Source: an uncultured Thermococci archaeon
GTDB taxonomy: Archaea; Methanobacteriota_B; Thermococci; Thermococcales; Thermococcaceae
Assembly: GCA_964487115.1 (NCBI GenBank)
Contig: CAZAPD010000045.1
Location: forward strand, 1 to 25,293
Direction: 5' to 3'
Length of the DNA: 25,293 nucleotides
The notes beneath the pieces were generated by a model, which searched no databases, had not been told where the DNA came from, and saw only the letters and a list, made by a program, of their open reading frames with translations. The translations under genes and the position numbers were made by a program. Every line of letters begins with the position of its first letter. Position 1 is the first letter of the stretch. Shown here one piece after another: positions 4,577-22,753 of the stretch.

Positions 4577-7321
<2,745 letters not shown>

Positions 7322-8526: not shown

Positions 8527-9318
8527 TTAACCAGAACATTTCAGATAATCAAGCAGCTCTCTAATGCTGGGTAAGATCAAATCAGGCTTTATCCCACTTT
8601 TCTCAACATCTTGGAGGTTGTTGACTCCTGTAAGAACCATTATTGCCTTGGCTTTGATTTTTCTTGCAAATGCTATATCAGTATCAAGCCTATCTCCCAC
8701 AAACCATACTTCTTCTTCATCCAGCTTCTCTTTGACTATCTCCCATACGGGTTCGTAGGGTTTTCCTATTATCAATGGCTCTTTTTCTGTAGCGACTTTT
8801 AGAGCTGCAATAATTGAACCCGCTCCGGGTACTATTCCCTCTTCAGAAGGATACGTAGTATCAGGATTTGTTCCTATGAATTCCGCCCCGTTTCTGATGG
8901 CCAATGTTGCATATTTCAGCTTTTTGTAGGTTAGCTCAGTATCCAGTCCAACAACTACATAGTCTATCTCCTTCCATCTTTCTCCGGCTTCTTCAGGCCA
9001 TATTATCTCCCAGTTTATGCGTTTGATTTCCTCAATAAGCCCCCTCCCACCCACTACAAAGACTCTGCCTTTTTTGAAGTGTTTCTGGAGATAGCGGGCT
9101 GCAGCATACCCGGAGGTGATAATCTGCTCCTCATTAACGTCAATTCCAAATCTCAGAAGTTTTTCCCTGTACATTTTTGCAGTTTTAGTTGAATTATTGG
9201 TGAGAAAAATGAAAGGAATGCCTTTTTCCTTTAAAAAGTTGATAACCTCTTCCGCACCTTCTATAGGAGTGTTTCCCCTGTAGAGCACGCCGTCCATATC
9301 GAATATTATCCCGGTCAT
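8527..9318 (-). CDS. HAD-IIA (NagD-like) phosphatase
   Basis: FDMDGVLY, LTNNS, TNPD, GKP, VGDRLDTDI and VLTGV motifs. ATGA overlap with the upstream gene. Confidence 0.95.
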   Translation of the reverse strand: MTGIIFDMDGVLYRGNTPIEGAEEVINFLKEKGIPFIFLTNNSTKTAKMYREKLLRFGIDVNEEQIITSGYAAARYLQKHFKKGRVFVVGGRGLIEEIKRINWEIIWPEEAGERWKEIDYVVVGLDTELTYKKLKYATLAIRNGAEFIGTNPDTTYPSEEGIVPGAGSIIAALKVATEKEPLIIGKPYEPVWEIVKEKLDEEEVWFVGDRLDTDIAFARKIKAKAIMVLTGVNNLQDVEKSGIKPDLILPSIRELLDYLKCSG

Positions 9319-10022
9319 ATTTGACTCACTGTCGCCAGCATTTTCTTTATACTTTTTAAAGTTTCTATAAGATTGTTTAGATCCTGTTCAATTCCAAGTT
9401 CTTTTGCATTCAACTTAACGGTTACAGTAGTATCTATAGGCACTTCGACTTCTTGATTTATGGGGACTTCGATGACTTTATTAAAAGGCACCTTGATTTT
9501 CATGTTCATAGGTACATTGACGTCGAAATTGAGAGGAACTTTTACAGGGAAGGTCTTATTAACATGAACGAGTACGGTAGTATTTATGGGAACATCAACA
9601 TATGTATCTATTGGAAATGTTATCTCTGTTTCTTCACCGTTGATAACTGTCGTGGTGGTAACGTTCTGAAGTATGTGTGTCCTAACGGTAGTGACGACTG
9701 GGACCTCCACATAGTCATCGACCGGTACATTTAACTCCAACATTTTATTTACAGGAACTGTCAAATTTTCCTTTATTGGTACCTCAAAAACTGTGGAAAC
9801 TGGAACCTTGGCTTTTAGGTTTATTGGCACTTTTATTTTATCTCTAACCGGAACGGTGACTATAATATCCTGGGTCTTTATTTTTTCCAGTGATGAAATG
9901 GTGGCATCTATATTTGATGCAGCCATTGAGGCTCCTTTGTAGGCGATGTACAATTCGGCTAAATTCAAAACTAACAAGAAAATCACAATTCCTGTGAGGA
10001 TCCCGGTTAGTACCTTCCCCAT
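9315..10022 (-). CDS. Membrane-anchored Val-Pro octapeptide-repeat protein (predicted long beta-hairpin), unknown function
   Basis: Hydrophobic N-terminus (aa ~4-29), about 16 xxxVxVP[IV] repeats, central INGE turn, amphipathic C-terminal helix. GGAGGTGA RBS. Confidence 0.85.
   Translation of the reverse strand: MGKVLTGILTGIVIFLLVLNLAELYIAYKGASMAASNIDATISSLEKIKTQDIIVTVPVRDKIKVPINLKAKVPVSTVFEVPIKENLTVPVNKMLELNVPVDDYVEVPVVTTVRTHILQNVTTTTVINGEETEITFPIDTYVDVPINTTVLVHVNKTFPVKVPLNFDVNVPMNMKIKVPFNKVIEVPINQEVEVPIDTTVTVKLNAKELGIEQDLNNLIETLKSIKKMLATVSQI
9411..9869 (-). repeat. Protein-level 8-residue Val-Pro repeat array (aa 52-204)
   Basis: Pro (or His) at aa 58, 66, 74, 82, 90, 100, 108, 116 and 137, 145, 153, 163, 171, 179, 187, 195. 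Confidence 0.9.
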
Positions 10023-10043
10023 AGTGTTATCACCTCCTAATTG

Positions 10044-11033
10044 CTATTTTATTACTTCTATATTAAGTTTTAGGCTCTGAATGGTACCATTTATTGCTTT
10101 GAGGATAAGGTTGGTAGCGTTAGTTTCGGCATAGTTTCCGTCCGGAGGAGCAGGAGGGAGTAAAGGTGGCTTATCCTTAAATAGAAGGAACCAAAGCTGC
10201 CATCTTCCGGGTTTGTCTATGCTAAATGTATAATTTTTTTCAAATTGTGGAGTCCAGTTGCCTTCTATATTCACAGGAATGCTGGGTAATGTTATATTAA
10301 ACCAGCCGGGCATGGGATACATAGCGTGTATTTTAGTTGTGTTTGTTCTGAAGTCATAGGTGAGGTTGACCAGCCATATCTGGACATAGTATGTTACATT
10401 CCTGTGTTCATGATTGACAATTCCCAGAATCACAGTGCCCTTTTCTCCGATGGTTAGGTTCGTTGGATAATCTGCGGCTTTTCCTCCAGGACCTAAGATA
10501 TAAAACTCTGTAAATGCCTCTCCCTGCTTTGGATGAGTTATTACATAGGCAAGTGTCCCAATCGAGGTTAGAATAGCTATTATTAAAATTACGGTTAGGA
10601 CTTTATCGAGTTTGCTTGATTGTTCCCATTCAAGTTCTTTTTTAAGTTTCTCAATGCTAATCCATGGAATCCACGGTTCAAAGGCGTTTATACGGCGGTA
10701 GATTGCAACAGTAGAAAATATAATGTTGAATATCGTCAGGCTAATCAGAATAGGGATCAGCCTAATTCCCCATGGAGTATAATTTAAAGCTAAACCAATA
10801 AGTGGAACAATGGCTATGCTTAATCCAAAGCTTAAGGCCACTCTTTCAAGATTGTCAAGCTCTTTCCTATTTGGGAAAAGGGCAGTTATGAAGACATAGC
10901 CGGGAAAGAAGAGTACAAAGGCTAAACCAAGAGCTTTTCTCAACAGGCTGTGTGGAGTGTACAATATCAAAAGATCGAGGGTGATTGAGAGCAGTATAAT
11001 TATTATTAAATCCCAGTAATTTTTTAGTTTCAT
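10044..11033 (-). CDS. DUF1616 family membrane protein
   Basis: LFFPGY..ALFP...LDNLERVALSFGLSIAIVPLIGLALNYTPWGI, FTEFYILG..GKAADYP and GIVNHE. Many N-x-S/T sequons in the C-terminal domain. Confidence 0.9.
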   Translation of the reverse strand: MKLKNYWDLIIIILLSITLDLLILYTPHSLLRKALGLAFVLFFPGYVFITALFPNRKELDNLERVALSFGLSIAIVPLIGLALNYTPWGIRLIPILISLTIFNIIFSTVAIYRRINAFEPWIPWISIEKLKKELEWEQSSKLDKVLTVILIIAILTSIGTLAYVITHPKQGEAFTEFYILGPGGKAADYPTNLTIGEKGTVILGIVNHEHRNVTYYVQIWLVNLTYDFRTNTTKIHAMYPMPGWFNITLPSIPVNIEGNWTPQFEKNYTFSIDKPGRWQLWFLLFKDKPPLLPPAPPDGNYAETNATNLILKAINGTIQSLKLNIEVIK

Positions 11034-11064
11034 TCAACCCACCACAAATAAAAGCGGAGAGGGG

Positions 11065-11079
11065 TTTAAAATGATTTCC
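11065..11079 (-). promoter_or_regulatory. Internal BRE/TATA for the DUF1616 - VP-repeat - HAD genes
   Basis: GGAAATCATTTTAAA on the minus strand, about 30 bp upstream of the DUF1616 start. Confidence 0.45.
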
Positions 11080-11082
11080 AAT

Positions 11083-11643
11083 TCAGGGTTTCTTAATGAG
11101 CTTCACCTCTATGGGAGTCACATCCTTTATCTCGCCTAAGAGGACAAAAATCAGTGTCAGACCCACAATGACAAGTGCTTGTGCTCCTGCATTCGGTAAT
11201 CTGTTTTTTATGGCATATAAGAACGCTATCAATAAGGTCCACCATCCTATCGCATAAAATGAGGCCTTTCCGAATCTGCGGTAAGCTATGTAAAACGCCA
11301 CAAATCCAAGAACTGGTAGGAAGGTGTAGAGTGTGAAGGCCGAAATTGTGAGCACACCGAGGAGTATAAATTCCTCCTTTGAAGGGCTTTTAAGTTCAAC
11401 ATCCCTGAGGATGTCATCGAGCACTACTATAATAGAAAAAGCTACTGTTACTCCATTTATTCCATCCAAGGTATATATTGAGCCGGGATTAAATGAAAAC
11501 GCAATTATTATGACATATATGTAAAAGATCAGCAGAGCGATATCTCTGCTCTTCAGCGCAACAGCATATATTATTGGTGTCAGGAGGAGTATGTAATTCC
11601 CCGTAAGTATGGCGGTTAAGATTGAAGCTATTATCCCTATCAT
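11083..11643 (-). CDS. Multi-pass membrane protein of the MoxR cluster
   Basis: About 6-7 hydrophobic segments. ATGA overlap with the DUF58 gene. Confidence 0.8.
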   Translation of the reverse strand: MIGIIASILTAILTGNYILLLTPIIYAVALKSRDIALLIFYIYVIIIAFSFNPGSIYTLDGINGVTVAFSIIVVLDDILRDVELKSPSKEEFILLGVLTISAFTLYTFLPVLGFVAFYIAYRRFGKASFYAIGWWTLLIAFLYAIKNRLPNAGAQALVIVGLTLIFVLLGEIKDVTPIEVKLIKKP

Positions 11644-12920
11644 AGTTTCTCCACCACCTTTGGAATTAGATCTTTTGGTCCTACTTCAATTATCTTTGTT
11701 TTCCCCATGAGTTTTTTCAGAAGTTTTTTCCTCTCCACATAGCGCATGTAAAGGAGTTTGAGCTTTTCTTCATTTAGGGTGTTCTTATCCATAAAAAATA
11801 TCGGGTTTGGATACAGAACTACTACTGTGGAGCCTCTCTTTTCGAGAATGTTTACAGCTTTCAGTATTTCCCTCGGATGAAGCCCTATATCATCTACTAT
11901 TATTACATAGGAATTGGCCTCAACTTTGAGGGCCGCTCTCACGAGACCCGATGTATAAATCCCCCTGCGCAATGAAAGAATCTTCCGGGTTAAGTGGGAT
12001 TCTCTCTCAAGGGATGAAGCCTTTATAGGAGGGATCCCTTTCTGGGGTGCAAGTTTAAGCTCTCCTACAAATGATTTTCCATCCCTTGGATTCGGAACAA
12101 CCTTAACGACCTTATCAGTATCATAGGCTATTCCGTTTATCATGTAGCCAAATTTCCTGAAATACTGAACAAGTTGAGCCGTTATCAGGATCAGGTAGTC
12201 GACTTTCAGGTTCTTCAGCTCGCGCCTGAATTTTCTATCGACATTTATTAGTAAATATATTTCGCTGAGGGTTTCCCTGTAGAATTCCTTAACTATGAGT
12301 TCGCCCAAGCGTGAGGTTGATTTCCAGTCGATTTTTCTCACATCGTCTCCTGGACGGAATTCCCTTAACTCCTTGAAATCCATGGTTTCAAGCCCTATAC
12401 CAAGTGCTCTTTCCACTTCAGCTATAGCCTCAACGGGTCTTTTTATTTTCAATGCCTCTCTGATACTCCTTGCAGAGGGCAGAACAAGAAGTTTCTCCTC
12501 CTTAAGGTGCATCTCCTTATAGAATAGACCGGGTTCATCCTCAAAGATCACATCTTCTCTAAGCGGTATGTATCCCTTTCTCTGGGGGACTATCGTCTGT
12601 TCAATGAATTTCACTTCTCCTGGTTTGAGTTTAACCTCAATATCTCTTGCAAAAACGAATTCAGATTCCTCTTTTATCTTGAGCCTGCCTGCGGTTTCTG
12701 AGAGATTTTCTACTTTGATACTGGCCTTCAGAGGTTCAAGTTCTGTACCTCTCTCAGGCAATCTCCTCTGCACTTTTATTTTCGGATTAAAGCTGAGTTT
12801 TGCCATAGTGTAGTATCCGGTTATTCCGGCAGCTATCAGGGCAGGTAGGATATTCCCTGTTAAGTATGCTCCTGCAGACAGTACTGCAGCCAGAGAGAGA
12901 AGTAAATCAGTTCTCTTCAT
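11640..12920 (-). CDS. DUF58 (COG1721) protein, MoxR partner
   Basis: Two N-terminal TM segments, an Ig-like region and FKELREFRPGDDVRKIDWKSTSRLGELIVKEF. Confidence 0.92.
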   Translation of the reverse strand: MKRTDLLLSLAAVLSAGAYLTGNILPALIAAGITGYYTMAKLSFNPKIKVQRRLPERGTELEPLKASIKVENLSETAGRLKIKEESEFVFARDIEVKLKPGEVKFIEQTIVPQRKGYIPLREDVIFEDEPGLFYKEMHLKEEKLLVLPSARSIREALKIKRPVEAIAEVERALGIGLETMDFKELREFRPGDDVRKIDWKSTSRLGELIVKEFYRETLSEIYLLINVDRKFRRELKNLKVDYLILITAQLVQYFRKFGYMINGIAYDTDKVVKVVPNPRDGKSFVGELKLAPQKGIPPIKASSLERESHLTRKILSLRRGIYTSGLVRAALKVEANSYVIIVDDIGLHPREILKAVNILEKRGSTVVVLYPNPIFFMDKNTLNEEKLKLLYMRYVERKKLLKKLMGKTKIIEVGPKDLIPKVVEKL

Positions 12921-13837
12921 TCAGTGGGCACCTCTACCCTGTCTAAGGCATCCATTACAATCTCCTTGCCTGTTATGTTGTCTATTTCATATTCGGGCTT
13001 AACTATAATTCTATGAGCCAGAACCGGGAGGGCAAGCTTCTTAACATCGTCTGGTATGACATAGTTCCTACCGCTGAGGTATGCATGCACCCTTGCAGCA
13101 TAAAGAAGGTGTTCTCCAGCTCTTGGTGAAGCTCCAAGTATTACCCTCTCATCCAATCGAGTCTCTTTCACTATTGAGTAAATGTAATCCACTATTGCAT
13201 CGCTAACGTGAACCTTTCTGAAGTCTTTCTTCGCATGCAGTATTTCCGATGATGGAACTACTTGTCTGGCTGCACTGAATTTACCAAGAGATTTTCTTTT
13301 GAGCATAAGTTTCTCCTGCTTTTCATCCAGATATGTTAAGTCTATCTTCATCATGAATCTATCTACCTGAGCCGCTGGAAGGTTGTAAACGCCCTCAAGC
13401 TCGATGGGATTTCTTGTCGCTATCACTATAAATGGTTCTGGAAGTCTAAGTGTCACACCTTCTATTGTGACCTGCCTCTCTTCCATGGCCTCAAGTAAAG
13501 CTGACTGGGTTTTAGGCGATGCCCTGTTTATTTCATCCACAAGAACAACATTGGCAAATATAGGACCCTTTCTCATTTTAAAGTCTCCTGTTCTCATGTC
13601 ATAGAACGTGTGTCCTAAGATATCTGCGGGTAGGATGTCTGGGGTCATTTGAATTCTAACAAACTTTAAACCAAGTGTGCTTGCAAAGTTTTTGCTGAGG
13701 GTTGTCTTGGCTATCCCAGGGATGCCCTCCAAGAGAATATGACCTTCAGCTATAAGAGAAATTGTCATGAGCTCGATTATTTCATCCATACCCACCACAG
13801 CTTTTCCAACTTCCGCTTTTATTTTTTCAAGTATCAT
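12917..13837 (-). CDS. moxR: MoxR family AAA+ ATPase
   Basis: HILLEGIPGIAKT, RIQMTPDILPADILG, DEINRASPKTQSALLEAMEE, ATRNPIE, DRF and GASPRA. ATG 13837 follows GGGTGA (alternative GTG at 13846). Confidence 0.96.
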   Translation of the reverse strand: MILEKIKAEVGKAVVGMDEIIELMTISLIAEGHILLEGIPGIAKTTLSKNFASTLGLKFVRIQMTPDILPADILGHTFYDMRTGDFKMRKGPIFANVVLVDEINRASPKTQSALLEAMEERQVTIEGVTLRLPEPFIVIATRNPIELEGVYNLPAAQVDRFMMKIDLTYLDEKQEKLMLKRKSLGKFSAARQVVPSSEILHAKKDFRKVHVSDAIVDYIYSIVKETRLDERVILGASPRAGEHLLYAARVHAYLSGRNYVIPDDVKKLALPVLAHRIIVKPEYEIDNITGKEIVMDALDRVEVPTE

Positions 13838-13838
13838 G

Positions 13839-14840
13839 TTAATCACCCATGCGTTCTATCATTGCAAGAACTTCCTTTTCATTCCATCCGTTCCTTTTTG
13901 AGAGTTGGATTGCCAGGGTTATTAAATCTTCTTTTTCCCCCCTGAAAAATCTGTCTATAAGGGATGATATAGGCTTAAGGAGATAATCCAAAACCCCAAT
14001 TTCAATCAGGAGTATAACAATGCCCATAATTATTAACATTTTTCTTGCCTTGTCGACAGGTAGGATTCTTGTAATTGTAACTGTTCCGGCACTATAGAGG
14101 TTAAAGTCCATGTGATGGGCTTCATCGATGTATACAGTGCCTCTACCAATATAGTCTATCAGATTGCTTATAAAGGGCTTGTTTTCAGTAAAAAATTGAT
14201 TTGTAAGGATATCTGGATCCGAGAGCACAATAACCTTTCCATCTCCATAAGGAATCTCGGTGAGTATGGGAAACTGGCCTTGATGGAAGTTGACCATAGC
14301 AACTTTACTTGAATAGACCTCTCCTTTTCCTGAGGCTGTAATGGCCGAGGGTTCGTTCATTATTATCCTGCTCACGTTTCTTCCAAGCACCGGATCATTT
14401 ATCCTGACGGTTACTATAATCCTATCATCCTTATTATAGAAAAAGTCTCTCAGTGGAGATTTTGAGATTCTCACAGAGAGATTAAGCTCCTTGAGTATCT
14501 GATCCCCATTTCCAAAGTCATCAGCTATAAAGAGCGTGTTTCCCCTTTTTACAAAGTCCTTGATCTGAGCGAGTTCAGCTGAGGTGTATGATACATCAGG
14601 AGCAATTACAATGAGAACCCCATTTTTATCCTTCAAATTCTCCATGTCAAAAGACTGGAAGAGAGGCACTACATCCACACCTTTCGAATGGAGGAGAATG
14701 GCAAATCTCGCTGTTCCATCCCAAGCAGTATTGAACATGCTGTAGGGAGTTGAGCTCTTGAAGATGGGAACTGTCAGTGGCATTGCTACAAGCGCCATCA
14801 TGAGTACTATCCCGGTGGTGTATACCACAAACTTTCTCAT
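13839..14840 (-). CDS. DUF4350 domain membrane protein
   Basis: N-terminal TM, YSMFNTAWDGTA, FVKRGNTLFIADDFG, GDGKVIVLSDPDILTN, DEAH and C-terminal TM. Confidence 0.88.
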   Translation of the reverse strand: MRKFVVYTTGIVLMMALVAMPLTVPIFKSSTPYSMFNTAWDGTARFAILLHSKGVDVVPLFQSFDMENLKDKNGVLIVIAPDVSYTSAELAQIKDFVKRGNTLFIADDFGNGDQILKELNLSVRISKSPLRDFFYNKDDRIIVTVRINDPVLGRNVSRIIMNEPSAITASGKGEVYSSKVAMVNFHQGQFPILTEIPYGDGKVIVLSDPDILTNQFFTENKPFISNLIDYIGRGTVYIDEAHHMDFNLYSAGTVTITRILPVDKARKMLIIMGIVILLIEIGVLDYLLKPISSLIDRFFRGEKEDLITLAIQLSKRNGWNEKEVLAMIERMGD

Positions 14841-16558
14841 CTATACCCCTCCAGAACCTTTTTGACTCTCTCTCTGAACTCCTTCTCTTCCTCTCCTGTG
14901 AGCGGCATGCTTCCATAGACCAGTTTCTCATGAAGCTCCGTTATTCGTTTCATGTCTTCATATATTTTGCTATTCCTAAAGAGCATGAGAGCTTCTCTTG
15001 GAGTGAGATTCTCGCTGATTCCCAAAATTTTCCTGAGGAATCCATAAAGCCCTGCCATGTCTTCGGGCAGACTAACCGCAGGTTTCTCCTCTTCAGGAAG
15101 TTTAGGATATCCTTCTCTCCTCACCATAGTCTTCTCCTTATGAGGCTTCTTTGTGTATATGGATGCTAAGATTAGGAATGCAAGAATTAAGAGTATCATG
15201 ACATACCTTTTCGCCATGCTTGGGGGATTGACAACATTTAGGATAATCACATTTGATATTGCTCCTGCATGGATGCTATCTCCCCTAAATTTTACATATA
15301 CCTTCAGTTTTCCTGTATCGTTAGGCTTTATGAAAAAGGAAAAACTGCCATTTACTGCGGTTATACTGATATAAGGTCTATTATTTAAATATACCACGAG
15401 TGGAGCTGAGAGGGAGGGTGTCATATTACCTGTGAATTCTATTTTCTCTCCTTTATACCCCTCCGAAGGACCGCTGAGTGTTATTGATGTCGGATATTTG
15501 CTGAAGATTAGGGAAATGTTCTTTGCTGCTGCTGAATGTGCATTATCACCCCGGAATCTGGCAGTGAGCTGTATGATTTGCGGAATATTTGAGGTATAGA
15601 TTGTGTAAAATGCCCCGTTTTCATCTGTAAGTAGTGTTCTGTTTCCAATAGAAATTTCCTTATGTTTAAGTGCATTCCCATAGTAGTCTATCAGCTGTCC
15701 TGAGACATTTAACTCGGAGCCCATCAGTCCACTGAATGTATCGCTCATTATGAAAAGCGAAGGGATTTTTCGAACTGTGATTGGGATTGTATTCGACCTA
15801 TTGGTTCCTTGGAGGGCATATATGGTGTAATTACCCAGCTTTCTAAAGGAGTACTCCACTGAGAACATGCCTTTCTTGGGGGAGGTGAATATCACCATTG
15901 AGCTGTTCTTTCCGAGTATAATTATCTGAATGCTATCATTTGAGGGAGTCGAGCCATATATTGTTATATTTTCGTGGAGGATGGGTTTTGTATTTGAAAT
16001 AAAGATTTCAAATTTTTCTGCATGAATCTTTGTGGAGGTTATCATTTCAAGAATCTTCCGCAGATAGCTTCGTACCCTTTCAGTCTGAGATGTAAAATTA
16101 AGAATTTTCGTTCCATTCATAAGTTTTATTGAATCAATAAGTTCGAGATCCTTATTCATAGTCTCAACCGTCCTTCGTATCCCTGCCACAAGTGCGCTGT
16201 TCGGCTCCTTCTGAAACTGAAGCACGAGTGAGGTTAACTCCTCGAGGTTTTGAGAAAAGTCATAAAATGGTGGTATCACCTCCATGACCTTAGCATTGAT
16301 GCCCTTATTTTGATAATAGATTGATTCGAGCTGTATAAGTTCAAGCTCGGTTGTGGTGTTGTTTGCAAGTTGAATGCTGTAGGGATTATTTTGGAGAGAA
16401 TACCTGAGTGAGTGTTCAAATTTAACAAGGGTCTTTGAGAAATATTCATATATGAAAATATCTCGACTAATGGGTTTTTCAACACCTTTTGCCGAGACTG
16501 AACCAATGCTGGAGCATATTATTAGAGCCACCATTATTACACCAAGAACCCTTTTCAT
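14837..16558 (-). CDS. Secreted, membrane-anchored Ig-like repeat protein with DUF4129-like cytoplasmic tail
   Basis: Signal peptide MKRVLGVIMVALIICSSIGSVSA, helical domain, about 3 beta-rich repeats (TDENGAF, ARFRGD, VKFRGD), TM segment, then LTPRE...HEKLVYG. More than 10 sequons. Confidence 0.8.
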   Translation of the reverse strand: MKRVLGVIMVALIICSSIGSVSAKGVEKPISRDIFIYEYFSKTLVKFEHSLRYSLQNNPYSIQLANNTTTELELIQLESIYYQNKGINAKVMEVIPPFYDFSQNLEELTSLVLQFQKEPNSALVAGIRRTVETMNKDLELIDSIKLMNGTKILNFTSQTERVRSYLRKILEMITSTKIHAEKFEIFISNTKPILHENITIYGSTPSNDSIQIIILGKNSSMVIFTSPKKGMFSVEYSFRKLGNYTIYALQGTNRSNTIPITVRKIPSLFIMSDTFSGLMGSELNVSGQLIDYYGNALKHKEISIGNRTLLTDENGAFYTIYTSNIPQIIQLTARFRGDNAHSAAAKNISLIFSKYPTSITLSGPSEGYKGEKIEFTGNMTPSLSAPLVVYLNNRPYISITAVNGSFSFFIKPNDTGKLKVYVKFRGDSIHAGAISNVIILNVVNPPSMAKRYVMILLILAFLILASIYTKKPHKEKTMVRREGYPKLPEEEKPAVSLPEDMAGLYGFLRKILGISENLTPREALMLFRNSKIYEDMKRITELHEKLVYGSMPLTGEEEKEFRERVKKVLEGYR

Positions 16559-16581
16559 GCCTATCACTTCCATAAAGAATA

Positions 16582-17948: not shown

Positions 17949-17959
17949 AGGTGATAATT

Positions 17960-19099
17960 ATGGTTTCTAAGCCGCATGGTGGGAAGTTAATCAGGAGAGT
18001 GGCCGCTGAAAAGACGAGAATGAGGATTCTGAGTGAGCAGCATGAATACCCTTCCGTTGAGATAGACCATGGAAAAGCGATTGACCTTGAGAATATAGCC
18101 CATGGAGTCTACTCTCCACTGAGAGGTTTCCTTACGAGTGACGACTTTCAAAGCGTCCTTGATCATATACGTCTCAGCGACGACACCCCTTGGAGTATTC
18201 CAATAGTTCTCGATGTTGATGAGCCCAATTTTGAAGAGGGTGATGCCATTCTGCTCTATTACAAAGACACTCCCATAGCGAGAATGCATGTGGGTGAGAT
18301 TTACACATACGACAAGAGGGAATTTGCCCAAAAAGTATTCAGGACTACGGATAAAGCTCATCCGGGCGTTGTTAAAGTGTATTCAATGGCCAAATACCTT
18401 GTCGGCGGTGAAATCGAGCTCCTCAATGAAGTGCCGAATCCCTTCGAGAAGTACACCCTGAGGCCAGTTGAGACGCGGGTGCTCTTTAAGGAGCGCGGGT
18501 GGAAAACCATTGTGGCTTTCCAAACAAGGAATGTGCCACATCTCGGTCATGAATACGTGCAAAAAGCAGCTTTAACGTTCGTTGATGGCCTTTTTATCAA
18601 CCCAGTCCTTGGGAAGAAGAAGAGAGGGGATTATAAAGATGAAGTAATAATCAAGGCTTATGAAGCCCTCTTCAAGCACTACTACCCGAGAAATGCGGCG
18701 ACGCTCGCAACAGTACGCTATGAGATGCGTTATGCTGGACCAAGGGAGGCAATCCACCATGCAATAATGAGGAAGAACTTTGGAGCAACTCACTTCATAG
18801 TTGGGAGAGATCATGCAGGAGTTGGCGATTACTACGGCCCCTACGAGGCTTGGGAACTTTTCGATGAGTTTCCCGATCTGGGAATAACCCCAATGTTCAT
18901 ACGTGAGGCTTTCTACTGCAGGAGATGTGGGGGAATGGTTAATGCCAAAATATGCCCACACGAGAGAAAGTTTCACGTACATATAAGCGGAACAAAGCTC
19001 AGGAGAATGATAACGAGCGGTGAAAAGCCGCCTGAATATATGATGAGACCTGAGGTCTATGAAGTGATAAAGAGCTTTAAGAGGCCCTTTGTAGAGTGA
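17960..19099 (+). CDS. sat: Sulfate adenylyltransferase (ATP sulfurylase)
   Basis: PHGGKL, YSPLRGF, FQTRNVPHLGH, MRYAGPREA, GRDHAGVG, zinc site CRRC...CPH, SGTKLR and MRPEV. Confidence 0.98.
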   Translation: MVSKPHGGKLIRRVAAEKTRMRILSEQHEYPSVEIDHGKAIDLENIAHGVYSPLRGFLTSDDFQSVLDHIRLSDDTPWSIPIVLDVDEPNFEEGDAILLYYKDTPIARMHVGEIYTYDKREFAQKVFRTTDKAHPGVVKVYSMAKYLVGGEIELLNEVPNPFEKYTLRPVETRVLFKERGWKTIVAFQTRNVPHLGHEYVQKAALTFVDGLFINPVLGKKKRGDYKDEVIIKAYEALFKHYYPRNAATLATVRYEMRYAGPREAIHHAIMRKNFGATHFIVGRDHAGVGDYYGPYEAWELFDEFPDLGITPMFIREAFYCRRCGGMVNAKICPHERKFHVHISGTKLRRMITSGEKPPEYMMRPEVYEVIKSFKRPFVE

Positions 19100-20037
19100 T
19101 TTCCATGTTAATTATACATCACTGGGACACAGATGGCATAACTTCAGCGGCCCTTGTTGCAAAAGCTTTGAGGTTAGAAGACTTCACTAACCTGAGCCCC
19201 CCAATAGGAGAGTTCAGATTTGACCTGAGGATTAGAAAAGCCATTGAAGAGGCCAAAAATATCTACGTCCTCGATCTCAATTTAGTCCACGAAGTCGAGG
19301 GCATAGAGAAAGAGACCGTCTTCATAGACCACCACATCCAGCCGAGAATCAGAAATCCAAGAATCAAGCAGATAAATCCATTACTGGAGGGAAATGAAGT
19401 CCCCTCAGCCTCCTTCGTGGTTTCATCTTATTTTTCCCTCTGGAACGCTTGGAGCGCTTTGGGAGTAATCGGCGATATTGGAAGCAAAGCCTTTGAAATT
19501 CCAAAAGTTGGAGAGCTCCTAAGAAAAGAAGGGCTTACAAAGGAGGAAGCTTTGAGATTAGTTCAGCTCATTGATTCAAATTACATCGTAATGGAAAGGG
19601 AGAGCGTGGAGAAGGCCGTTGAAATACTTTTAAGCTCAACTCTCAGAGAGCTTTTGGAGTACGAGCCGTGGATCAAAAACGTTGAGGCTATAGAAAGAGC
19701 AATCCAAGATGCCTTCTCCCATGTAGAGCCAAGGGATGGGTTTGCGTTCATAGAATTCGTGAGTCCATTCAATATAATCTCAAAAATTGCGAGGAAAGCA
19801 GTATGGAAAGCTGGCTATGAAGGGGCAATCGTGGTGAACAGGGACTTCCACGGGAAAGGCCAGATATACTTTAGAATCTCCTCCAAGTTGAAAGGGAGAA
19901 TAAACATGAGTGAGATTATTGGCACTCTCAAAGAAAAGGGCTTCAACGCAGGTGGAAAAAGCGAGGTTTTGGGCTGCATTTGCGAAAAGGATAGAATAAG
20001 CGAAGCTTTAGAGATAATTAACTCTTATCTGAGGTGA
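19096..20037 (+). CDS. DHH family phosphoesterase, likely PAP (3'-phosphoadenosine 5'-phosphate) phosphatase
   Basis: HHWDTDG, VLDL, IDHH, GD and AGGK motifs. The PAP role is inferred from context. The start may be ATG 19105. Confidence 0.85.
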   Translation: MISMLIIHHWDTDGITSAALVAKALRLEDFTNLSPPIGEFRFDLRIRKAIEEAKNIYVLDLNLVHEVEGIEKETVFIDHHIQPRIRNPRIKQINPLLEGNEVPSASFVVSSYFSLWNAWSALGVIGDIGSKAFEIPKVGELLRKEGLTKEEALRLVQLIDSNYIVMERESVEKAVEILLSSTLRELLEYEPWIKNVEAIERAIQDAFSHVEPRDGFAFIEFVSPFNIISKIARKAVWKAGYEGAIVVNRDFHGKGQIYFRISSKLKGRINMSEIIGTLKEKGFNAGGKSEVLGCICEKDRISEALEIINSYLR

Positions 20038-20042
20038 TTGAG

Positions 20043-21434
20043 ATGGAAAACGTTAAGAAAGTCTTTGTTATCGGTTTAGATTCAGCTCCTCCAGAGCTTT
20101 TGTTCAACAGGTTTTTGAATGACCTACCAAACATAAAGAAGCTCCTGAAAAAATCAATTTATGGCCCGATGCAGAGCACGATTCCAGCAATCACTATTCC
20201 TGCATGGATGGTCATGGCCACAGGCAAAACACCCGGAGAGCTCGGCTTATACGGCTTTAGACATAGAAAGAAGGGAACGTACAACGACATCTGGATTGCC
20301 CACGCATTAATGGTTAAGGAGAAGGCCGTTTGGCACCACATAGCTGAGAAGGGTAAAAAATCAATTTTAGTTGGTGTTCCTCCGAGCTATCCCCCAAGGC
20401 CAATCAACGGTTACCTCGTGAGCTGTTTCATAACTCCAGATGCTTCAGTTGACTATACCTATCCAAAGGAACTCAAAGGTGAGATTGAGCGCTTAGTCGG
20501 CGAGTACATCTTTGATGTAGTCTTCAGGAAAGAGAATAGAGATGAGGTTAAGGAGCAACTCTGGGAGATGACAAAGAAGAGGTTTGAGGTTATCCGCTAC
20601 TTAATCCAAGAAAAGGAGTGGGATTACTTTCAGTTCGTGGATATAGGTTTGGATAGAGTCCACCACGCCTTTTGGAAGTATTTCGACGAGAACCACCACC
20701 TCTATCCCGGCGACGACAACCCCTACAAAAACGTAATTCCCGATTATTACAGGCTCCTCGATGAGGAGATAGGCAGAACATTGGAGCTCTTGGATTTAGA
20801 TGAGACCGCTATCATAATAGTTTCAGACCACGGGATAAAGGCCATGAAGGGAGCTTTCGCAATAAACCAGTGGCTGATTGAAGAGGGTCTCTTGAAGATT
20901 AAAAACCCCGAGATTCTCAAGGAAGGAAGACAGGTTAGATTCAACGAACTTAAGGTTGACTGGAGCAAAACGATTGCTTGGGCTTGGGGTGGCTACTACT
21001 CAAGAGTCTTCCTCAACGTCAAGGGGAGGGAGCCTCAAGGAATCATTGAGCCCGAGAACTACTACAAGGTTAGGGACGAGATTGCCGAGCTCATAAAGGG
21101 CATTAGAGGACCAAACGGTGAGAAGTGGAACACTAAAGTGTTCTATCCGGAGGAGATATATCCAATCGCCAAAGGCGATAAGCCAGACATGATGGTTTAT
21201 TTGGACGATTTGAACTGGAGAGCTGCTGGAACTCTCGGTTATGAGACGCCATACCTCTTAGAGAATGACTTGGGCCCAGATGATGCGGTTCACGCTGAGT
21301 ATGGAGTGTTCTCCCTGTATCTGCCAAGCATGGAGGAGGCTAAGCAAACCCAGCTCACAATTTACGACTTCGCACCAACAGTGCTCAAGCTCTTTGGAAT
21401 AAGAAAGCCTCTTAGAGGGAGGAGTGTAATATGA
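20043..21434 (+). CDS. Alkaline phosphatase superfamily enzyme (NPP/phosphodiesterase-like, COG3379 type), cytoplasmic
   Basis: VIGLDSA, STIPAITIPAW (Thr nucleophile position), TGKTPG, DRVHH, SDHG, DDAVH and DFAPT. No signal peptide and no CxPxR sulfatase motif. Confidence 0.9.
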   Translation: MENVKKVFVIGLDSAPPELLFNRFLNDLPNIKKLLKKSIYGPMQSTIPAITIPAWMVMATGKTPGELGLYGFRHRKKGTYNDIWIAHALMVKEKAVWHHIAEKGKKSILVGVPPSYPPRPINGYLVSCFITPDASVDYTYPKELKGEIERLVGEYIFDVVFRKENRDEVKEQLWEMTKKRFEVIRYLIQEKEWDYFQFVDIGLDRVHHAFWKYFDENHHLYPGDDNPYKNVIPDYYRLLDEEIGRTLELLDLDETAIIIVSDHGIKAMKGAFAINQWLIEEGLLKIKNPEILKEGRQVRFNELKVDWSKTIAWAWGGYYSRVFLNVKGREPQGIIEPENYYKVRDEIAELIKGIRGPNGEKWNTKVFYPEEIYPIAKGDKPDMMVYLDDLNWRAAGTLGYETPYLLENDLGPDDAVHAEYGVFSLYLPSMEEAKQTQLTIYDFAPTVLKLFGIRKPLRGRSVI

Positions 21435-22003
21435 GCGAGAAGGGAGGAGCAAATGCCCAAGAAGTATCTCTTAGGACGCTGAAGCAGGGATTTACCATCT
21501 GGCTCACCGGACCGAGCGGAGCAGGTAAAACAGTTTTGGCACATGCTCTAAAGAAAAAGCTCAAAAGAATGGGTTATAGAGTGGAAATTTTAGATGGTGA
21601 TGTGATAAGAAAAACTCTCTATCCTGACTTGGGCTTCAGCAGGGAAGCGAGAGAGATGCACAACCGTATAGTTATCCACATGGCCAAGCTCCTATCGAGA
21701 AACGGCGTCATAACAATCGTCTCCTTGATTTCACCGTACAGAGCCGTCAGGGAATATGCGAGGAAGGAGATAGGCAACTTCATTGAAGTCTATGTCTATG
21801 CTCCCCTTGAAGTGAGGATCCAGAGGGATCCAAAGGGTCTCTATGCCAGAGCCATAAAGGGGGAGATTAGGGGATTGACGGGCTATGATGGAGTCTATGA
21901 GGAGCCAGAGAGCCCGGAAGTTAAGGTGGACAGCTCAAAAATGACTCCTGAGGAAGAGGTGGAGGCAGTCTTAAGCAAGGCCAGAGAGCTTGGCTATCTA
22001 TGA
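21431..22003 (+). CDS. cysC: Adenylylsulfate (APS) kinase
   Basis: TIWLTGPSGAGKT, LDGD, LGFS, ISPY, RDPKGLY, TG...YEEP. Confidence 0.97.
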   Translation: MSEKGGANAQEVSLRTLKQGFTIWLTGPSGAGKTVLAHALKKKLKRMGYRVEILDGDVIRKTLYPDLGFSREAREMHNRIVIHMAKLLSRNGVITIVSLISPYRAVREYARKEIGNFIEVYVYAPLEVRIQRDPKGLYARAIKGEIRGLTGYDGVYEEPESPEVKVDSSKMTPEEEVEAVLSKARELGYL

Positions 22004-22012
22004 GGTGGTTTA

Positions 22013-22753
22013 ATGCTAATTTTTATTTTTCTCGGTTTCCTCGTTGGATTTTTAGTTGGACTGACAGGTGTCGGTGGAGGAGCCTTAATGACGCCTTCAC
22101 TCATTTTTCTGGGGGTTGAGCCACTAACCGCTGTTGGCACCGATTTAGTTTACGCCACGATTACAAGGGTTTTTGGTGTGCTCTTCCACAACAAAAAGAG
22201 GAACATCAGATTTGATCTGGCTCTGAGACTTTTTGCTGGAAGTTTACCCGCAATTTTACTCGGGTCTGTTCTGCTTAGGATTATTGATAAAAGCACCCTT
22301 AACAATTATCTCACCTTATTGCTTGGTACAATTCTTGTCCTTAGTTCCTTCCTCAGCTTAATTAAAGGGGAAATTCATGTTCCCCTGAGACCACGGAGGG
22401 AATATCTCTATCTCTTAGGGTTTATTGTCGGTTTAACCGTCCAGTTCACCTCAGTAGGAGCTGGGGTCATTGTTAGCTTTGCCCTGATGAATCTGGCTAA
22501 AATCAGTCCCAAGGAAGTTGTTGGCGTTACGATATTTTATGGTCTGGCCTTGTCCTCCTTCAGCGCCCTAAACTATGCGTTTCTGGGAAGTGTGAATTAC
22601 CACTTAGCCTTAGTGTTGATTGCCGGCACTTTGCCGGGTGTTTATTTAGGAACCCATATAAATGCCAGAACTGATAGGGATAAGTTGAAGAGAGTTATTA
22701 ACGTCATAATACTAGCCATTGGGCTCCTGATATTGGTTCAGAGAATAGTTTGA
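22013..22753 (+). CDS. TauE/SafE (TSUP) family transporter
   Basis: GFLVGLTGVGGGALMTP, AVGTDL and TSVGAG. About 8 TM segments. Confidence 0.92.
   Translation: MLIFIFLGFLVGFLVGLTGVGGGALMTPSLIFLGVEPLTAVGTDLVYATITRVFGVLFHNKKRNIRFDLALRLFAGSLPAILLGSVLLRIIDKSTLNNYLTLLLGTILVLSSFLSLIKGEIHVPLRPRREYLYLLGFIVGLTVQFTSVGAGVIVSFALMNLAKISPKEVVGVTIFYGLALSSFSALNYAFLGSVNYHLALVLIAGTLPGVYLGTHINARTDRDKLKRVINVIILAIGLLILVQRIV

Follow-up and report, generated by a model that had tools for sequence, protein, structure and literature searches.

Several described systems resemble the Val-Pro repeat protein analyzed here in one respect or another. Membrane fusion proteins (EmrA, AcrA, HlyD; PF00529, PF13437) assemble into a hexameric duct; they share with the hairpin family described below a single anchor and an elongated shape, and some members of that family lie, like them, beside or fused to MFS or ABC exporters, but the modelled layout of the hairpin protein is inverted, its helices forming the base and its beta-hairpin the tip. 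The phage lower collar is one barrel tube made from the long beta-hairpins of many subunits, and we know of no membrane anchor or Val-Pro period in its proteins. The stems of beta-pore toxins (lysenin, aerolysin, anthrax PA pore) likewise consist of one long hairpin per subunit, whereas our protein, designated P0001, has no receptor or cap domain and carries a hydrophobic face along its full length, which probably points inward. The archaeal S-layer stalks (tetrabrachion, SlaB, Pyrobaculum SLP) are also membrane-anchored, elongated envelope proteins of hyperthermophiles; according to the accessible part of the source they are coiled coils or Ig arrays (10.64898/2026.08.21.746120), in contrast to the repeat hairpin of our family, which also has bacterial members. 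Articulins and epiplastins are characterized, in the available sections of the source, by more than three VPV motifs and numerous acid-base dyads, and epiplastins coat the inner membrane surface of protists (PMC6212826).

The window (the whole stretch of DNA that was analyzed, 25,293 nucleotides) contains the P0001 gene as a minus-strand ORF of 235 aa, at the position originally given, and two intact orthologs lie in synteny with it at 90% and 73% identity. The features of the gene and its immediate neighbors are as follows.

9315..10022, minus strand: P0001 gene, 235-aa Val-Pro hairpin protein (ORF and syntenic orthologs)
10030..10038, minus strand: ribosome-binding-site-like AGGAGGTGA, with the ATG 7 bases further on
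9942..10013, minus strand: single membrane anchor, about residues 4-27 (hydropathy 2.5; model helix 3-50)
9873..9941, minus strand: membrane-proximal N-terminal helix, residues 28-50 (AlphaFold2 model), its predicted partner being the C-terminal helix
9642..9866, minus strand: arm 1, residues 53-127, V-P-I-N-x-T-V-x 8-residue repeats with one 10-residue step
9636..9641, minus strand: two-residue turn N128-G129, the predicted hairpin tip (AlphaFold2 model; midpoint Gly family-wide)
9411..9635, minus strand: arm 2, residues 130-204, predicted antiparallel partner of arm 1 (i+j=257)
9321..9389, minus strand: C-terminal amphipathic helix, residues 212-234, not membrane-spanning (model and hydropathy)
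10044..11033, minus strand: DUF1616 membrane protein, the upstream neighbor, last of a MoxR/DUF58/DUF4350 cluster (Pfam)
8527..9318, minus strand: HAD-IIA phosphatase, the downstream neighbor, overlapping P0001 by 4 bases and near the TK1734 family

P0001 contains only one hydrophobic segment (Kyte-Doolittle 2.5 from residue 4, and at most 1.0 past residue 30), in agreement with the N-terminal transmembrane anchor proposed for it, and the expected sequons N86, N120, N147, and N155 are all present. Prolines occupy positions 58, 66, 74, 82, 90, 100, and 108 in the first arm and 137, 145, 159, 163, 171, 179, 187, and 195 in the second. The 10-residue step described among the 8-residue proline spacings is found once in each arm; of the 16 repeat anchors that had been listed, 14 are prolines, but positions 116 and 153 are His, and Pro159 had been omitted. 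The proposal that both termini sit at the membrane holds for the anchored N-terminus; the C-terminal helix has no anchor and is predicted to pack on the N-terminal helix.

The AlphaFold2 model of P0001, calculated on 56 sequences, consists of a helix (residues 3-50), a strand (53-127), a turn (128-129), a second strand (130-204), and a second helix (212-234), so that both arms are flanked by helices as anticipated; mean pLDDT is 74.6 and pTM 0.38, and residues 71-79 and 176-184, which lie opposite one another in the model, fall below pLDDT 50. The model of a distant bacterial-type member has a central hairpin of residues 83-138/141-196 (mean pLDDT 53.8, pTM 0.25). The core of the original prediction, a single giant antiparallel hairpin with arms of about 75 residues, is thus supported by AlphaFold2 together with the paired arm lengths and the charge pairing described below, and we regard a hairpin in register 257, its base closed by an antiparallel pair of helices, as very probable from the model. 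In this register 57 of 76 inner-face positions are hydrophobic, as against 10 of 74 on the outer face, and all 15 prolines and all four sequons lie on the polar outer face, at positions where the backbone NH is directed away from the partner strand. The outer face similarly holds 183 of the 184 Pro and 102/102 sequon Asn in 14 archaeal proteins. The computed maximum for 75 residues is 25 nm, matching the ribbon length of up to about 25 nm that had been suggested.

The first argument for symmetry was arithmetic, the mirrored anchors of the two arms summing to 253. Because complete anchor pairing arises in 7 of the 49 placements of the free 10-residue step in two period-8 arms, and because the P0001 prolines alone give a tie between the sums 253 and 245 (six pairs each), this arithmetic in one sequence is weak evidence of symmetry and suggestive only. 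The symmetry is above chance, but it is demonstrated by the family, not by P0001 alone. The proposed axis also requires correction: A sum of 253 places it at 126.5, two residues ahead of the N-G turn, and matches prolines with prolines, whereas the strand ends in the model sum to 257, centered on N128-G129, a register that sets every Pro opposite a non-Pro. In 33 homologs, chosen for a recognizable turn motif and anchored on that turn, the cross-strand pairs at offset 0 comprise 125 opposite-charge, 28 like-charge, and 10 Pro-Pro pairs; at offset -4, the sum-253 register, they comprise 65, 80, and 100, respectively, and no offset from -12 to +12 other than 0 gives more than 65 opposite-charge pairs. 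Register 253 was rejected, given that AlphaFold2 returns register 257 and that charge pairing peaks at the turn-defined register. Since charge pairs peak at offset 0, with few Pro-Pro pairs, the arms pair with their prolines staggered by half a repeat.

If the arms pair along their whole length, repeats should be gained and lost in pairs, and the homologs bear this out. Arm lengths co-vary with a slope of 1.03 (r 0.995) in the 22 of 24 archaeal homologs in which the two flank landmarks could be located along with the turn motif; these fall into eight distinct arm-length pairs, from 51.5/56.5 to 95.5/99.5 residues, and forms of 267-271 aa carry an additional 16 residues on each arm. The midpoint carries a turn Gly in 32 of 38 proteins, with 3.2 expected and a maximum of 13 in 200,000 simulation runs; the 38 proteins (cores of 97-199 aa) are the 55 full-length rows of the alignment of helix-capped members (A3) dereplicated at 60%, and the Gly window, -1 to +4.5 from the inter-flank midpoint, was chosen after a first look at the data. 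A held-out repeat on proteins outside the alignment (cores of 62-150 aa) found the midpoint Gly in 18 of 21, with 3.0 expected. It should be noted that the homologs are kin, and the midpoint and pairing counts overstate independence, although the length classes remain distinct. Judged by sequence, the hairpin would thus change length without breaking register, through paired gain or loss of repeats on both arms; length varies threefold in the family, with cores of 62-199 aa overall. Neither the sequence searches nor the fold searches turned up a solenoid or sandwich structure, homologs with asymmetric repeat numbers, or a match to a known family.

Neither Pfam nor NCBIfam gives a match above cut-off for P0001, and no description of the family was found in the literature outside subscription journals and supplements. 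A word-based homolog search with P0001 alone returned zero matches, whereas an exhaustive search returned 52 proteins; 39 of these were kept, having by inspection the whole layout or fragments of it, and 13 were dropped as non-homologous, since on inspection they looked eukaryotic or consisted of simple tandem repeats that lack the flanks. A profile search found 52 proteins, 49 of them new and none with a precomputed Pfam domain. By profile, the gene occurs in 25 of 128 genomes of its own phylum, among them 17 of 59 other genomes of its own genus, and in 49 of 401 genomes of a bacterial phylum (that of genome G129) which we take, from the look of its genes, to be Chloroflexota. Two subtypes can be distinguished, a helix-capped one (A3) and a bacterial, nearly gap-free one without the C-terminal helix (A4); the two match with 99% probability (E 1e-18), a match that is out of register and aided by composition. 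The family is real, widespread, and apparently undescribed. What is new is the family and its architecture, not a demonstrated function: an unannotated, widespread group with an unusual design rule in which ribbon length changes only in matched steps, giving two-stranded ribbons that reach about 90 residues per arm and carry their staggered prolines on a single face.

Named bacterial members comprise one Oligoflexales and one Pseudomonadales protein, and Acinetobacter baumannii encodes two tandem paralogs between gapA and obgE (L155:8911-10337), so that the family points to an uncharacterized gene pair in this species. The first paralog (QCP18022.1, 246 aa) is labelled "MFS transporter," has one membrane segment by inspection, and perhaps received the label by transfer from the fused forms described below; P0001 itself was rejected as an MFS transporter, with no MFS_1 match and one hydrophobic segment against 12-14 helices. 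The locus tag A1S_2499, listed as "hypothetical protein" (PMC2848557), could not be tied to the pair. Clusters of look-alikes in the ESM Atlas, mostly from Bacteroidota, Verrucomicrobiota, Pseudomonadota, and Chloroflexota (scores 0.94-0.95, TM 0.55-0.59, and TM 0.74 for a match to P0001 residues 50-207), are leads only.

Further variation was observed within the family. The phylum of G129 has a second, more divergent subfamily (L059, L071-L088) with GGGG or other variant turns, and many of its genomes encode both subfamilies at separate loci. P0023 continues past the hairpin with another membrane segment and with an FHA domain; the C-terminus of P0061 contains, by inspection, an additional hydrophobic segment. 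One family member is matched weakly (E 8e-5) by a plasmid protein of Lactiplantibacillus plantarum (L156:2800-3666); tblastn with P0001 gave no match in phages, plasmids, or viral contigs. Frameshifted, split, or partial copies occur in four genomes of the genus, at L004:1353-1998, L048, L011, and L020, the L011 remnant downstream of tRNA-like sequences.

Comparison with solved and predicted structures gave no close relative. Foldseek against the PDB and BFVD yielded no match at E <=0.001. Its best rows were the lower collar tail tubes of phages phi29 and Andhra (6qz9 and 8egr; E 0.05 and 0.011), a fold match that is non-significant (TM 0.10-0.16, rmsd >45) and serves as an analogy only; the top viral fold row was Bacillus phage G gp421 (BFVD G3MAG2; E 1.3e-3, TM 0.19). 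The hits of the wide structural searches were generic helical hairpins (Z <=9.2) and single helices (Z <=4.2), the former in alignments running from the N-terminal into the C-terminal helix, so that these helix-dominated searches barely tested the hairpin. Pore toxin stems, like the collar tubes long hairpins of a generic kind, appeared as weak rows (E 0.2-1.2; Z 4.2 over 54 residues), and the comparison with beta-pore-forming toxins gave no sign of a toxin function in P0001. Sequence search against solved structures gave no more than three matches, to a viral delta protein (E 9e-4), to a designed repeat protein (E 0.003), and to the LEA protein 1yyc (E 0.46), all of which we treat as compositional; LEA_2/WHy membership was rejected, with 1yyc as the sole hit, no Pfam match, and an extended model as opposed to a compact beta-sandwich.

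A candidate mechanism follows from the two faces. P0001, held by its N-terminal anchor, would have the part outside folded back into a two-stranded beta-hairpin of 75 residues per arm, and several copies would bundle with their hydrophobic faces turned in, giving a slender barrel rod of 15-25 nm, because a 25-nm strip of Val, Ile, Leu, and Phe cannot stay exposed. We consider it probable that the hairpin lies outside and, from its hydrophobic face, that about 4-6 hairpins form a barrel. A rough packing fits this number, with an estimated axial barrel length of 15-20 nm, and the rough volume estimate makes a trimer too tight, 4-5 hairpins solid without a lumen, and at least six hollow. Against a barrel stand the one in four inward positions that are polar or charged, and the prolines, which take away part of the outward backbone NH that adjacent hairpins need. 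The rod could then serve membrane exporters as an envelope-crossing conduit or adaptor, leading hydrophobic or lipid-linked cargo off the membrane, a task that membrane fusion proteins perform as adaptors of pumps. Our best reading of the whole chain, anchored hairpins bundled into a rod whose length is set by the repeats and which acts as an exporter conduit or adaptor, is put forward tentatively; its weakest step is the conduit role, drawn from partial gene context and doubtful enough to hold the whole chain at that level. If true, it would provide a route for hydrophobic cargo over thick envelopes in archaea and bacteria that have no classic adaptors.

In bacteria, P0106 is a whole hairpin protein fused behind an EmrB/QacA MFS pump, and a similar region (TM 0.50) is found in 53 MFS proteins, each of 829 aa, that form one cluster in the ESM Atlas. 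The hairpin gene directly precedes an ABC ATPase in four of the 19 positive genomes of G129's class; the hairpin proteins of these four share 32-38% mutual identity, and an ABC-2 permease comes next after the ATPase in three of the four loci, where the locus reaches. In G070 the gene lies right after an MFS gene, and in G113 and G090 it precedes a flippase-family gene. The MFS fusions and the four ABC operons tentatively suggest an envelope conduit. Against such a link, 24 of the 28 ABC-ATPase loci examined have no hairpin gene within 1.5 kb, and the linked ATPase is present in 79 of 251 genomes, a tally that takes in up to three unpublished genomes (the locus-level claims are independent of these). 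The four loci may be descended from one operon, most bacterial loci examined have unrelated neighbors, and no exporter gene adjoins P0001 in the window (Pfam). Also against a conduit, the gene is patchy within the genus and some copies are broken (broken or partial in G008, G086, G003, and the second G016 copy). Little weight was given to the RND pump cluster that lies 1-3 kb away from the homologs in L157, L159, and L160, which are one close-kin group. P0001 was rejected as a membrane fusion protein: The HlyD profile gave no match, the model has no lipoyl or beta-barrel domain, and a true AcrA-like neighbor scored as expected; a Pfam scan of 40 homolog-search matches also found no HlyD-family profile. 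A broader reading, in which at least six anchored Val-Pro hairpins form a hydrophobic-lined beta-tube of repeat-pair-tuned length serving MFS, ABC, and flippase exporters across both domains, as an all-beta counterpart of the membrane fusion proteins and as a two-paralog hetero-oligomer in Acinetobacter, strikes us as rather unlikely.

The same bundle may instead be a solid rod, that is, a strut, spacer, or glycan-bearing spike of genetically set length that transports nothing, and this we regard as doubtful but almost as likely as the conduit. Side chains fill a barrel of 4-5 hairpins completely (fill 0.9-1.26), and the threefold length variation, the sequons all facing outward, and their higher density in archaeal members (3.0 per 100 aa, vs. 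0.87 and 0.5) are consistent with it, although N-x-T belongs to the repeat consensus and is found in bacterial members too. The archaeal gene context points the same way: Among the 20 genomes of the same family as ours that carry the hairpin gene, 13 have a copy within glycosylation clusters, eight adjoining STT3-like and GT2/GT4 genes (five of these assigned by ORF translations in short loci, not Pfam) and five adjoining RmlA/B, a flippase, or GT2. The remaining seven comprise three at the DUF1616 slot, two beside a CGP-CTERM surface protein, and two in variable regions. In other genus members a TasA/camelysin-like surface gene fills the slot between DUF1616 and HAD, at 14 or more other DUF1616 loci as judged by N-terminal text. 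A solid rod leaves the MFS fusions and the ABC operons unexplained, however, and a gene so patchy and so often broken would be unusual for a structural envelope part. Its reach is also limited. The Pyrococcus furiosus periplasmic gap is about 34 nm according to the accessible portion of the source (PMC5517150), and P0001 probably stops short of passing the S-layer, since the rod (at most about 25 nm) and its short helical base (about 3.5 nm extra, by arithmetic) together fall below this; the original suggestion of a stalk spanning the S-layer is thus doubtful, and that of a molecular ruler gained no direct support. If the solid rod is correct, it would represent a heat-stable, length-programmable nanorod and an envelope spacer.

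Assembly of the hairpins by edge or face into sheets or fibers, which would parallel, on the outside, the membrane skeleton of articulins and epiplastins, appears improbable. The likeness to articulins and alveolins had been raised from the VP-rich composition, and in this respect it stands: P0001 has five VPV motifs (vs. more than three), its content of Val+Ile is 32% and that of Ala+Gly 1%, and its strands are predicted to be long, as expected of epiplastins. It fails elsewhere, with just three acid-base dyads in 152 residues and no match to the IMCp profile (Pfam, E <=0.1; which we take to be PF12314). P0001 further differs from epiplastins in its membrane anchor, mirror arms, and prokaryotic range; its anchor and sequons suggest a location outside, unlike the under-membrane epiplast. 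The anchor, the terminal helix pair, and the strict pairing of arm lengths suit a discrete particle, and the outward prolines would hinder unlimited sheet growth.

We consider it similarly improbable that P0001 works as a monomer or dimer, its twisted hairpin serving lipid-linked glycans as an open hydrophobic groove or as a measuring arm, the ruler of the original suggestion. The glycosyltransferase and flippase neighbors in archaea would fit, as would the overlap of the gene with a 500-aa multi-pass membrane gene without Pfam match (G129, G705), but neighbors vary between lineages, and a two-stranded ribbon presumably lacks the width to cover 57 hydrophobic side chains. That the repeats form a beta-solenoid, sandwich, or disordered linker, with the symmetry a by-product of periodicity, is very improbable, the low pTM of both models (0.38, 0.25), their low-confidence stretches, and the 7/49 chance that a single sequence pairs all its anchors being outweighed by the family-wide midpoint turn, the paired lengths, and the register-specific charge pairing.

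As to the neighbors in the window, the hairpin gene follows DUF1616 in three of 30 DUF1616 loci, too few for a general link in function with the MoxR/DUF1616 cluster, and such a link was rejected. The HAD-IIA phosphatase, whose score of 468 against a TK1734-family cut-off of 475 points to a Thermococcales archaeon as the host, is probably cotranscribed with P0001 and functionally unrelated to it. The TasA/camelysin-like protein that fills the slot elsewhere has 198 aa and is secreted (L141:2561-3154 and kin); genome G000 has a copy at another place, on contig C127, 47-56% identical. Upstream, the co-directional cluster at 10044-16573 (minus strand) encodes Ig/DUF4129-like, DUF4350, MoxR AAA+, and DUF58 proteins, a membrane protein of 186 aa, and DUF1616. 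The genes measured have a G+C of 0.38-0.42, as opposed to 0.54 in a ribonucleotide-reductase-like gene at 4577-7303. By inspection, positions 17951-22753 (plus strand) hold a putative sulfate-activation cluster with ATP sulfurylase-like, DHH-like, phosphodiesterase/sulfatase-like, APS-kinase-like, and TauE-like genes.
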